Positions 29,901 to 32,000 of a stretch of 32,000 nt of DNA are shown piece after piece. Origin of the DNA: Nonlabens ponticola (GTDB lineage Bacteria > Bacteroidota > Bacteroidia > Flavobacteriales > Flavobacteriaceae); assembly GCF_003966335.1 (NCBI RefSeq), contig NZ_CP034549.1, forward strand, positions 2,760,001-2,792,000, written 5' to 3'. The position numbers and the translations under genes were made by a program. The notes beneath the pieces were generated by a model that searched no databases, was not told the origin of the DNA, and worked only from the letters and a program-made list of their open reading frames with translations. The first letter of the stretch is position 1. Each line of letters starts with the position of its first letter.

Positions 29901-30560
29901 ATGAAATTTTTAACCATAATAGCTTTTCTAGCTATAGCAAATAGCTGCAATCAGGATCCTAGCTCAAGTAATGAAAATGTAGCATCAAATGATGAAGAAC
30001 CGATTGAAGTAGCGACCATGCAAGGACGTGAAAAGGCATATTTTGCCAGCGGTTGCTTCTGGTGCGTCGAGGAGATTTATGAGAGTGTAAAAGGCGTTGA
30101 CGAGGCTATTTCTGGGTACAGCGGTGGTACTACCAAAAACCCAACATACGAGCAATCCAATACAGGAAATACTGGTCATGCAGAAGCTAATGAAATTATC
30201 TATGATCCAACCGTAGTAAGTTTTGAAACACTAGTCGATGTGTATTTTGCATCCCAGAACATTGAGCAGGTAAACGGACAAGGACCAGATCGTGGCTCGC
30301 AATATCGTAGTATCGTGTTTTATCAAAACGATGAACAAAAGAAGATCATCAATGACAAGATCGCTCAACTAGAAGCTGATGGCTACGACGTTGCTGCTGA
30401 GGTCAAACCATTCCAGAAATTTTGGGTGGCAGAGGATTATCATCAGGATTATGCAGAACGTAATCCTAGCAACGGATATATTCAAAACGTGTCCATACCT
30501 AGATGGAGAAGATTTGCCAAAGAAATGCCTGAAGTGATCAAAGATGGCGTTAGTCATTAA
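29901..30560 (+). CDS. msrA: Peptide-methionine (S)-S-oxide reductase, lipoprotein form
   Basis: Active-site GCFWCVE and a lipoprotein signal (FLAIANSC). The track start at 29895 is TTG; ATG at 29901 is preferred. Confidence 0.93.
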   Translation: MKFLTIIAFLAIANSCNQDPSSSNENVASNDEEPIEVATMQGREKAYFASGCFWCVEEIYESVKGVDEAISGYSGGTTKNPTYEQSNTGNTGHAEANEIIYDPTVVSFETLVDVYFASQNIEQVNGQGPDRGSQYRSIVFYQNDEQKKIINDKIAQLEADGYDVAAEVKPFQKFWVAEDYHQDYAERNPSNGYIQNVSIPRWRRFAKEMPEVIKDGVSH

Positions 30561-30580
30561 GCAAGTTTCAATAAATTTTA

Positions 30581-30616
30581 AAAAGGGTTTCAAAATAATT
30601 TGAGACCCTTTTTTAT
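30581..30616 (+). terminator. Rho-independent terminator after msrA
   Basis: Stem AAAAGGGTTTCA (30581-30592) / TGAGACCCTTTT (30601-30612), 12 bp with one G.U pair, an 8-nt loop, and a T-run extending to 30616. Confidence 0.8.
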
Positions 30617-30709
30617 CTCAACTCTATTATTGACCGTGGTTCGGCTAATCTTCTAGCATTTGATTATCAATCGTTTCAGCCTTATTTTAAAATAAACTTG
30701 GTCAATAAA

Positions 30710-30717
30710 TAATTTTG
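30710..30717 (+). promoter_or_regulatory. -7 box TAATTTTG upstream of the Asn leader ORF and asnB
   Basis: Exact TAnnTTTG, 17 nt before the leader ATG (30735). Confidence 0.5.
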
Positions 30718-30734
30718 CCTACATTTACCACATC

Positions 30735-30785
30735 ATGAAAAACATGAATAATAATAACGAGAATAATAATCCTTTACTAACGTAA
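30735..30785 (+). CDS. Candidate asparagine-rich leader peptide MKNMNNNNENNNPLLT (16 codons, 8 of them Asn)
   Basis: My own translation: ATG AAA AAC ATG AAT AAT AAT AAC GAG AAT AAT AAT CCT TTA CTA ACG TAA. It lies between a -7 box and a terminator, directly upstream of asnB. Confidence 0.6.
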   Translation: MKNMNNNNENNNPLLT

Positions 30786-30842
30786 GGTAGATCTCGTTGT
30801 TTGCAAAAAATCAAAAGGTCTACTGTAAAGTAGGCCTTTTTT
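30786..30842 (+). promoter_or_regulatory. Candidate attenuator RNA in which an antiterminator (30786-30794 pairing with 30816-30824) competes with a terminator
   Basis: GGUAGAUCU (30786-30794) can pair with AGGUCUACU (30816-30824) over 9 bp (7 Watson-Crick plus 2 G.U). The latter segment is also the 5' arm of the terminator stem. Confidence 0.55.
30813..30842 (+). terminator. Intrinsic terminator between the leader ORF and asnB
   Basis: Stem 30813-30824 (AAAAGGTCTACT) / 30829-30840 (AGTAGGCCTTTT), 12 bp with one G.U pair, a GTAA loop, and a T6 run at 30837-30842. It ends 22 nt before the asnB ATG. Confidence 0.75.
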
Positions 30843-30864
30843 CATTTAAAAAAACCAACCAACC

Positions 30865-32000
30865 ATGTGTGGAATTGTAGCAGTATTTGATCTAAAAAAG
30901 GAAAGCAGTGATCAGCGGGAAAAAGTTCTAGAGCTTTCAAAAAAACTAAGGCATCGAGGACCAGACTGGTCTGGAATCTATTGTGGTGATAATGCCATTC
31001 TCGCTCATGAGCGATTGACCATTGTTGATCCGCAATCTGGCGGACAACCGTTATACAGTCCAGATGGCAAAATAGTGCTTGCGGTGAATGGTGAGATCTA
31101 CAACCATCAAGAAATTAGAGATCGCTATGCAGCCTCTTATAAATTCAAAACAAAATCTGATTGTGAGGTCATCCTGGCTTTGTATCAAGACAAGGGCATG
31201 GATTTTTTAGATGAGCTTACAGGTATGTATGGATTTGCGCTATACGATAGCGACAAAGATATATTCATGGCGGCGCGTGATCATCAAGGGATTATTCCAT
31301 TGTATTATGGCCGCGACGACATGGGTCAACTGTACATTGCTAGCGAGCTTAAGGCGCTAGAAGGTACCTGCAAGGAAATTGCACCATTCCCACCAGGACA
31401 TTATTATACTAGTACGAGCAATGAATTTGTAAAATGGTATGATCGTGACTGGAAAGAGTACAATGCAGTAAAAGATAATACCAGCAGTGTGGCTGATCTT
31501 AAAAAGGCTATGGAAGATAGCGTTCATAGACACCTGATGAGTGACGTACCTTACGGCGTGCTATTGTCTGGTGGTCTGGATAGCTCTATCGTTAGTGCCG
31601 TTGCAAAAAAATATGCCGCACGACGCGTAGAGTCTGGTGACCATGCAGATGCCTGGTGGCCTCAATTACACTCTTTTGCCATAGGACTTGAAGGCAGTCC
31701 AGATCTAGAGGCCGCACAAGTGGTTGCAGATCATATTGGCACCGTGCATCATAGTGTAAACTTTACAATTCAAGAAGGATTAGACGCGGTAAAAGACGTG
31801 ATCTATTATCTTGAAACCTATGATGTAACCACAGTACGGGCATCAACACCTATGTACTTGCTGGCACGAGTGATCAAGTCAATGGGAATCAAGATGGTCC
31901 TTTCTGGTGAAGGAAGTGACGAGATTTTTGGTGGGTATTTATATTTTCACAAGGCACCTAATGCACAGGAATTTCATAAGGAAACAGTACGCAAACTGGA
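30865..32000 (+). CDS. asnB: Asparagine synthase B (glutamine-hydrolysing), N-terminal 378 codons. The 3' end runs off the window.
   Basis: My own translation from ATG 30865: MCGIVAVFDLKK...RLTIVDPQSGGQPL... (Cys2 Ntn-amidotransferase). The PP-loop SGGLDSS is at 31567-31587. It is absent from the track because it is truncated at the window edge. Confidence 0.93.
   Translation, partial: MCGIVAVFDLKKESSDQREKVLELSKKLRHRGPDWSGIYCGDNAILAHERLTIVDPQSGGQPLYSPDGKIVLAVNGEIYNHQEIRDRYAASYKFKTKSDCEVILALYQDKGMDFLDELTGMYGFALYDSDKDIFMAARDHQGIIPLYYGRDDMGQLYIASELKALEGTCKEIAPFPPGHYYTSTSNEFVKWYDRDWKEYNAVKDNTSSVADLKKAMEDSVHRHLMSDVPYGVLLSGGLDSSIVSAVAKKYAARRVESGDHADAWWPQLHSFAIGLEGSPDLEAAQVVADHIGTVHHSVNFTIQEGLDAVKDVIYYLETYDVTTVRASTPMYLLARVIKSMGIKMVLSGEGSDEIFGGYLYFHKAPNAQEFHKETVRKL

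Follow-up and report, generated by a model that had tools for sequence, protein, structure and literature searches.

Is asnB, the asparagine synthetase gene of Nonlabens ponticola, preceded by a leader that reads the supply of asparagine? The question is raised by a 32,000-nucleotide stretch of the chromosome of this bacterium (contig NZ_CP034549.1, positions 2,760,001 to 2,792,000; hereafter the window), in which msrA ends at position 30560 and the asnB start codon begins at 30865. The resulting gap of 304 bp, as given in a preliminary description of the window, was confirmed by direct reading of the sequence. That description had placed in the gap a short open reading frame (ORF) rich in asparagine codons, followed by competing hairpins, and had interpreted the arrangement as an attenuator of asnB; all of the coordinates it gave were checked and are correct. 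Leader-peptide attenuation is a classic case of coupled transcription and translation, and the comparisons and folding models reported here indicate that the element is very probably a ribosome-mediated leader-peptide attenuator, which would sense charged tRNA-Asn and control asnB. This interpretation is supported by conservation of the leader, by the fixed spacing of its parts, by covariation in the so-called 1:2 helix and in the terminator, and by simulated folding of the nascent RNA.

An asparagine-rich leader ORF upstream of asnB

Eight of the 16 codons of the leader ORF specify Asn, with runs of four and three, which places a short ORF rich in tandem cognate codons, one of the defining features of the attenuator class, upstream of asnB. 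A second such feature is that the gene following the leader serves biosynthesis of the sensed amino acid. As Asn makes up half of the leader codons and the downstream gene makes Asn, the arrangement has the cognate logic expected under the attenuator interpretation. Among the 437 ATG-initiated ORFs of 10-30 amino acids in the six frames of the whole window, at least six Asn residues are encoded only by the leader ORF and its nested start.

One objection is that this is a chance ORF in an AT-rich spacer, which happens to adjoin an ordinary terminator or insulator hairpin and has no regulatory connection with it, as the intergenic G+C content is 29%, AAT codons are common, and short hairpins with T runs are frequent. 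However, when the intergenic region was shuffled 5000 times, an ORF with at least six Asn codons arose in only 21 cases (0.4%), and msrA already possesses a terminator of its own (30585-30614). The remaining evidence on this point comes from the relatives described below.

Alternative RNA structures of the leader

Folding of the leader region yields a structure of -31.8 kcal/mol (z = -5.84), which none of 200 shuffles equalled, and the window contains each of the four regions known from textbook attenuators (Table 1). In the minimum-energy fold, 30753-30762 pairs with 30792-30801 in a 10-bp 1:2 (anti-antiterminator) helix, the 5' arm of which overlaps the regulatory codons, a further characteristic of the class, while an apical hairpin pairs 30772-30777 with 30782-30787. 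Alternatively, GGUAGAUCU (30786-30794) can pair with AGGUCUACU (30816-30824) to give an antiterminator of 9 bp, comprising seven Watson-Crick and two G-U pairs. The preliminary description had recognized the antiterminator and the terminator, both of which are indeed present, but its two-structure scheme overlooked the 1:2 helix, which carries most of the covariation.

An intrinsic terminator between leader ORF and target gene, likewise typical of the class, is formed by the stem 30813-30824/30829-30840 with its GUAA loop and U6 tract, and it ends 22 nt before the asnB ATG; both reading of the sequence and a terminator scan returned this same hairpin. Its earlier qualification as "strong" needs correction, since only 4 of the 12 stem pairs are G-C and the core consists of the 8-bp GGUCUACU/AGUAGGCC (with one G-U pair), lengthened by A-U pairs that draw on part of the U tract. 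When the energies of the alternative structures were compared, as had been suggested, the segments folded with -12.1 (1:2), -10.1 (2:3) and -15.3 (3:4) kcal/mol. Evaluated as duplexes, the 2:3 pairing reached -11.0 kcal/mol against a shuffled-arm mean of -4.25 (11 of 2000 shuffles as good) and the 1:2 pairing -11.9 kcal/mol against a mean of -4.95 (6 of 2000 as good).

The terminator is bordered by an A tract in addition to the U tract, and consequently presents a hairpin with a U tract on either strand; a convergent gene that could use it is lacking. Weak matches to the leader model were also recorded on the reverse strand at 30806-30908 and at equivalent sites in relatives.

Table 1. Positions of the features of the msrA-asnB region, numbered from the first nucleotide of the window.
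Feature	Position	Strand	Sequence, basis or remark
msrA intrinsic terminator	30585-30614	+	stem GGGUUUCAAA/UUUGAGACCC, then U6; read from sequence
Conserved TTG, candidate -33 element	30698-30700	+	same alignment columns in 11/15 relatives
-7 box candidate of the preliminary description	30710-30717	+	TAATTTTG; present, not conserved; relatives read GAAAAACA, ACATTTTA, AGATTTTT etc.
Conserved TAnnTTT[G/A] box, likelier sigma-A -7 element	30720-30727	+	TACATTTA; alignment of relatives
Leader ORF	30735-30785	+	MKNMNNNNENNNPLLT and TAA stop (30783-30785); 16 codons; Asn codons 30741-30743, 30747-30758, 30762-30770
Region 1, 5' arm of 1:2 (anti-antiterminator) helix	30753-30762	+	AAUAACGAGA; minimum-energy fold; inside Asn and spacer codons
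Apical hairpin of 1:2 structure	30772-30787	+	CUUUAC-UAAC-GUAAGG; holds the stop codon as well as the antiterminator arm's first two G
Region 2	30786-30801	+	30786-30794 (GGUAGAUCU), antiterminator 5' arm; 30792-30801 (UCUCGUUGUU), 1:2 helix 3' arm
Region 3, terminator 5' arm	30813-30824	+	AAAAGGUCUACU; 30816-30824 alternatively pairs with region 2
Region 4, terminator 3' arm and U6 tract	30829-30842	+	AGUAGGCCUUUU (30829-30840), U6 (30837-30842); terminator scan
asnB, glutamine-hydrolysing asparagine synthetase, regulated gene under the proposed scheme	30865-32000	+	truncated by window end; Pfam GATase_7, GATase_6, Asn_synthase

Conservation of the leader among relatives

To compare the upstream regions of asnB among relatives, as the preliminary description had proposed, 172 asnB loci (labelled L with a number) were assembled, of which 80 came from a scan of one genome per species, 80 from a metagenome scan, and 12 from contigs whose AsnB is 75-88% identical to the query. 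These include 15 distinct sequences of a Nonlabens type, which derive from N. ulvanivorans, N. dokdonensis, N. agnitus, N. antarcticus, Nonlabens sp. Hel1_33_55 and several Nonlabens metagenome-assembled genomes (MAGs), the rest being from one MAG labelled only Flavobacteriaceae and from metagenome contigs. All 15 possess an Asn-rich ORF of 15-17 codons, located 121-134 nt upstream of the asnB ATG and followed by the same terminator. Each leader contains 4-9 Asn codons, mostly arranged in two runs, as in the peptides MLQNNNFRTNNNPSQT, MSLNNNIRINNNSLRT, MNNNNNNGTNNNPLYR and MININNNINFNNSLLR, with variable residues between the runs (e.g., FRT, IRI, IG or E). Since the Asn runs are kept while other residues drift, the pattern is the one expected for a sensor ORF and not for a functional peptide. 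The gene upstream also varies (msrA, an Nramp gene and others), while the leader remains with asnB.

These relatives are not near-identical strains: mean column identity is 69% from the promoter to the asnB ATG (alignment A2) and 75% in the leader itself (alignment A3), and their AsnB proteins are 79-88% identical to that of the window. Relatives as diverged as these 15 nevertheless retain the ORF, its Asn runs, the distance of four codons from the last Asn codon to the stop, and the helices, and the same features recur with other sequences in five further loci. This tells against the chance explanation, which we consider hardly credible.

Leaders of the same design were found upstream of asnB in five loci from other Bacteroidota, where the ORF described for the window thus has counterparts: L031:2838-2958 and L042:2838-2953, both from lake Bacteroidales MAGs, L093:1348-1463 and L107:1329-1455, both from metagenome contigs, and L136:1291-1417. 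The first four constitute a Bacteroidales type, with leader peptides MAQNFNTVFNNNNPFPD, MFTTTNSAFNYNPQAD, MLIKTNTNFNNNPVTG and MFNTNTHFNSFNNYNPV, a hairpin over the stop codon, and, directly after the stop, a GGAAAGC segment that is complementary to the terminator 5' arm (antiterminator GGAAAGC:GCUUUCC; terminator GGCUUUCC-loop-GGGAAGCC-U5-7). The fifth, L136 (MFIPNNNNLLFNNNPSMR), exhibits a third set of arm sequences. All five are alike in having an Asn-rich ORF, a stop-codon hairpin and an antiterminator arm straight after the stop, while the genes flanking them are unrelated. A covariance model built from Nonlabens sequences only scores the five leaders at 29-56 bits, for which reason they may be distant homologues. 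The occurrence of one design with different helix sequences constitutes the strongest argument that the design is selected. A 30-nt block, GGAAAGCUGUAUUGUGUUUGAAAAAUCAUA, is common to four of these five leaders with at most one mismatch.

A different possibility is that the terminated leader RNA or the leader peptide is a trans-acting product, i.e., a small RNA or small protein, and that control of asnB is secondary or absent. An attenuator-derived small RNA and an active leader peptide, rnTrpL and peTrpL of Sinorhizobium, provide precedents (PMC7968998, PMC7298713), and termination would yield a stable RNA of ~110 nt that ends in a hairpin. However, the peptide is unconserved outside its Asn runs, its spacer codons vary with their RNA partner so that no amino acid is kept, and the element is always situated directly upstream of asnB in five different neighbourhoods. 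A trans-acting function is compatible with attenuation as an added role; as a replacement for it, we judge it very improbable.

The Asn leader is absent from the majority of the sampled Bacteroidota that are more distantly related. An "Asn" ORF at L066 proved to be the 3' end of the upstream gene, and a conserved small ORF in L007, L008 and L011 to be an out-of-frame piece of the coding end of the upstream gene. In the latter three loci (L007:2650-2981, L008:2670-3000 and L011:2670-3000; Paludibacteraceae and related), the coding end of the preceding gene together with a terminator fills the region upstream of asnB, and there is no leader.

Covariation in the leader helices

Covariation was scored on the terminator-state structure, comprising 9 bp of the 1:2 helix, the 6-bp stop-codon hairpin and the 12-bp terminator. 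This structure was set by hand; RNAalifold on the MAFFT alignment recovered the terminator only, because in three sequences, those of the window, L006 and L167, the 5' arm of the 1:2 helix is shifted by one codon. Realignment with a covariance model left these three out of register, and their cells were counted as unpaired, which makes the figures conservative. In the raw MAFFT alignment 89.6% of cells are paired and nine pairs are changed on both sides (1/500 shuffles), with a covariation score exceeded by none of 500 shuffles; in the model-fitted alignment the values are 91.2% and ten double-changed pairs (0/500 shuffles), these counts being supportive and not a formal test, as the shuffle control ignores relatedness. 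Controls in which the structure was slid pair at 40-55%.

The 1:2 helix and the stop-codon hairpin together are 82-87% paired and show double changes at 7-8 of 15 pairs. The stop-codon hairpin tracks the identity of the stop codon, with UAA facing UUUA, UAG facing CUA, and UGA facing UCA. In the terminator 97.8% of cells are paired, and compensatory changes occur at two pairs: 30819:30834 is U-G, U-A or C-G among relatives, while in L169 a G-C replaces A-U at 30822:30831, where the antiterminator partner U still pairs as U-G. A tract of U5-U7 follows the hairpin in 14 of the 15 Nonlabens-type leaders, L163 having UUUUCU (the terminators of L031, L136 and L163 were judged by eye on folds).

The antiterminator is represented by a core of 5 bp, GGUAG:CUACU, which is kept in 13-15 of the 15 leaders and is followed, after the sixth position, by 2-3 further pairs. 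The 9-bp pairing of the preliminary description therefore exists in the window, while its full length is specific to N. ponticola and a few others. Potential for this pairing is present in every leader, at -5.4 to -12.4 kcal/mol in 18 of 19 scanned; in L031 the arm was mis-detected and recovered by a constrained fold, and L136 was assessed by eye.

These data also bear on the proposal that asnB is controlled by something other than termination, such as Rho-dependent polarity, mRNA stability or translational control, with the hairpin and U tract playing a minor part. The modest terminator core of 8 bp with one G-U pair is in keeping with such a proposal, as is the lack of covariation in the antiterminator. 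On the other hand, U5-U7 tracts are maintained in all but one of the Nonlabens-type leaders and in the four Bacteroidales-type leaders, the terminator stem carries the compensatory changes described above, the hairpin leaves the asnB start unsequestered, as it ends 19-30 nt ahead of the ATG, and it is precisely the terminator's 5' arm that is engaged by the alternative pairing. Control at a level other than termination accordingly seems to us improbable.

Proposed mechanism and simulated stalling

From the features described above we infer the transcription start, translation of the ORF, stalling of the ribosome and a response to asparagine, which would combine as follows. Transcription would begin shortly before the leader ATG (probably around 30732), and a ribosome would translate the 16-codon leader while the polymerase makes the next ~60 nt. 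Where Asn-tRNA is plentiful, the ribosome would reach the stop codon (30783-30785) and cover 30786-30794, or, following its release, the 1:2 hairpin (30753-30801) would re-form; region 3 would then be free to pair with region 4, and the terminator (30813-30842) would halt transcription short of asnB. Where Asn-tRNA is scarce, the ribosome would stall on either Asn run and cover region 1; with the last Asn codon four codons before the stop, its front edge would lie just short of region 2, which would pair with region 3, block the terminator and allow the polymerase to enter asnB. If the leader is not translated at all, the 1:2 hairpin would form and lead to termination. The terminated leader RNA would be ~110 nt in length.

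The geometry of the leaders is consistent with this scheme. The last Asn codon precedes the stop by exactly four sense codons in all 15 Nonlabens-type leaders, in three of the four of the Bacteroidales type and in L136 (NNNPSMR), and in all 15 of the Nonlabens type the antiterminator arm starts at -3 to +1 nt relative to the stop codon's end. With the ribosome assumed to cover the RNA to 15 nt past the first P-site base, a value taken from general toeprint knowledge, a ribosome awaiting Asn-tRNA at the last Asn codon stops just short of region 2, while one at the stop codon covers region 2, which is the placement of the stop codon characteristic of attenuators. A Pro codon often follows the last Asn codon (NNNP), where CC starts the stop-codon hairpin.

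When the nascent RNA as far as region 3 was folded under constraint, the antiterminator reached -5.9 to -15.4 kcal/mol with a stalled ribosome and practically vanished (0 to -1.4 kcal/mol) with the ribosome at the stop codon, while in the absence of a ribosome the 1:2 hairpin formed in at least 12 of 15 leaders. When the ribosome was moved codon by codon, the antiterminator appeared with the A site at approximately codons 4-13, a range that opens at about the first Asn codon and closes one codon beyond the last. In 11 of the 15 Nonlabens-type leaders no antiterminator formed at the first codons, at the last two to three codons, at the stop, or without a ribosome, as illustrated by the profile of L003 (0 0 0 8 8 8 8 8 8 8 8 8 8 7 0 0 0). 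The leader of the window shows the same codon range above a background of 4 bp, whereas L005 is an exception with an antiterminator at every early codon. The contrast between a stalled ribosome and one at the stop codon, on which the preliminary description had based its interpretation, is thus reproduced under the assumed footprint.

Promoter and start of the leader mRNA

The -7 box that had been proposed at 30710-30717 could not be upheld, as it is not conserved, and the box shared by relatives lies at 30720-30727. Positions T31, A32 and T35-T37 (numbering of the first aligned sequence) are invariant in alignment A2, and the end of the TAnnTTT[G/A] box is 7 nt from the leader ATG in 13 of 15 relatives and 4 nt from it in two (L002 and L167). 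The sigma-A box of a flavobacterium has been placed at -12 to -5, and 5.5% of the mRNAs there are leaderless (PMC9723704). By analogy with that box position the transcription start is placed near 30732, 3 nt before the leader ATG, in which case the TTG at 30698-30700 would be found at -34 to -32. The 5' untranslated region (UTR) would accordingly measure 3 nt in 13 of 15 relatives and be absent in L002 and L167, and the leader mRNA is predicted to be nearly leaderless, with a 5' UTR of 0-3 nt. The Bacteroidales-type leaders have TATCTTTG 25-28 nt before the ATG. Bacteroidota ribosomes make no use of Shine-Dalgarno pairing.

Observations that weigh against attenuation

Several observations have to be set against the attenuator interpretation. 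The most direct concerns the antiterminator: compensatory changes had been proposed as a test of both competing helices and were found in the terminator, but there are none in the antiterminator of the 15 Nonlabens-type leaders, both arms of which are nearly invariant. Moreover, 11 of 15 relatives have a mismatch at its sixth pair (30791:30819), which in L006 is disrupted by a substitution that makes the terminator better. The terminator also exceeds the antiterminator in thermodynamic stability; the switch therefore has to operate kinetically, as is true of classical attenuators as well.

Further points relate to translation. With a predicted 5' UTR of only 0-3 nt, efficient initiation is an assumption, and the outcome of the stall scan depends on the assumed ribosome footprint. 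In the simulation L083, L169 and the Bacteroidales-type leaders favour the antiterminator even without a ribosome, and the step in which absence of translation gives termination is therefore not general. Lastly, three loci of the same clade (L166, L168 and L172; AsnB 81-85% identical to that of the window) possess asnB without the Asn leader, which means that the leader is dispensable. At these three loci (740-1000) the upstream neighbour is a divergent gene, which has a MatE domain in L166 and L172 and no recorded domain in L168.

A sibling Trp leader beyond asnB

In every Nonlabens-type locus that extends past asnB, the Asn-leader model also matches, with 34-64 bits, the spacer that separates asnB from a trpE-like chorismate-binding gene. 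This spacer holds a Trp leader, MKRTNHTWWWNNTAQQP, at L161:2719-2828, L081:3216-3331, L002:4716-4832 and 12 other loci; it was read in these relatives, the equivalent site in N. ponticola lying beyond the window end. In most relatives, 7 nt separate the end of its TAnnTTTG box from the ATG. The two leaders have a nearly identical terminator module, AAAGGUCU[A/G]CU-loop-[A/G]G[U/C]AG[G/A]CCUUUUUU, with 62-88% identity within a genome and a 34-nt identical stretch in L002. They differ in that the regulatory codons of the Trp leader encode WWW, that ORF and middle part show no similarity above that of shuffled sequence, and that the Trp leader has a conserved UUAAC loop, its antiterminator, judged by eye, seeming to use this loop and the 3' arm in place of the 5' arm.

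The sequence comparison thus indicates that the flanking attenuators share a terminator module through duplication or gene conversion. In the window and all 172 loci, a small sample, the terminator motif is confined to the leaders for Asn and Trp, and within that small sample this rules against a generic terminator repeat. The Trp leader is kept downstream in L166, L168 and L172, the loci lacking an Asn leader, and it returned no Rfam match in L161, L081 or L002 (E<=0.1). As siblings on either side of asnB, these putative attenuators would represent a case of specificity change, in which the terminator module was kept while codons and antiterminator were rewired.

Neighbouring genes

The gene preceding the leader was identified as msrA by its PMSR domain. 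The presence of a separate terminator for msrA (Table 1) implies that the leader has its own promoter; this terminator was overlooked by the simple terminator scan and separates msrA from the leader promoter. The partial AsnB encoded in the window is 100% identical to Nonlabens ponticola asparagine synthase B.

Comparison with known attenuation systems

Rfam searches of 30400-31000 at a permissive threshold (E<=10) returned no leader family, whether Trp, His, Leu, Thr, Bacteroid-trp (RF01692) or leu/phe, nor a T-box riboswitch; the whole window gave nothing at the gathering score, T-boxes included, and five related loci gave nothing at E<=0.1. Weak, below-threshold matches to STnc370 and STnc50 over a region ending in the terminator hairpin were set aside. 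The preliminary description had known of no established Asn-codon attenuator of asnB in Bacteroidota, and neither an Asn-codon leader nor an asnB attenuator was found in the full-text literature, subscription journals being outside this coverage, although earlier comparative genomics may list one. To our knowledge, the amino acids sensed by leader-peptide attenuation are few, namely Trp, His, Leu, Thr, Ile/Val, Phe and, in Actinobacteria, Cys, and we know of no leader-peptide attenuator that has been tested in depth in Bacteroidota. As far as could be established, the asnB leader would therefore be new in its amino-acid specificity, its target gene and the unusual start of its mRNA, the mechanism class itself being textbook.

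A broader picture can be offered tentatively, as a possibility to which we give rather less than even weight: that this is the first Asn-specific attenuator, belonging to an old and patchily retained Bacteroidota family attached to asnB; that in Nonlabens the ribosome loads on a leaderless or 3-nt-leader transcript; and that the terminator module is shared with the Trp attenuator by duplication or gene conversion. If the attenuator interpretation holds true, it would add a specificity to attenuation, explain asnB control in some Bacteroidota, and provide a compact natural Asn-responsive switch of ~110 nt. With a promoter box 4-7 nt before the leader ATG, it would also furnish a clean case for studying the recruitment of a sensing ribosome to nascent RNA that has almost no 5' leader.

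The closest parallels are the classical enterobacterial attenuators trpL, hisL, leuL, thrL, ilvL and pheL (RF00513, RF00514, RF00512, RF00506), with which the asnB leader shares tandem cognate codons, 1:2 and 3:4 helices (together with a putative 2:3 antiterminator), a stop codon in the 1:2 hairpin adjoining region 2, and the same sensing logic. It differs from them in responding, as proposed, to Asn, in having a single target gene and a Bacteroidota host, in lacking a Shine-Dalgarno sequence and, by prediction, all but 0-3 nt of a 5' UTR, and in showing neither sequence nor covariance-model similarity (E<=10).

Within Bacteroidota, the Bacteroid-trp family is recorded as RF01692 (PMC2864571), and in Flavobacterium psychrophilum leader-peptide attenuators have been proposed for trp, his, ilv/ilvE, hisG and aromatic amino acid genes, the hisG leader being 129 nt long with a peptide of 19 amino acids, while the annotated asnB of that species lies in the context remC-asnB-murB with no leader listed (PMC9723704). 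The asnB leader resembles these in phylum, in its TAnnTTTG promoter type and in the order of a short cognate-rich ORF followed by an intrinsic terminator; however, none of them is for Asn or asnB, and RF01692 does not match the window.

A third comparison is with the T-boxes found upstream of Asn-related genes in Firmicutes, which sense tRNA charging and switch between terminator and antiterminator. T-box RNA binds uncharged tRNA directly and contains no ORF, and the element at ~110 nt is shorter than T-box leaders. The two systems would share the logic of tRNA charging, with a leader ORF present only in the asnB leader.

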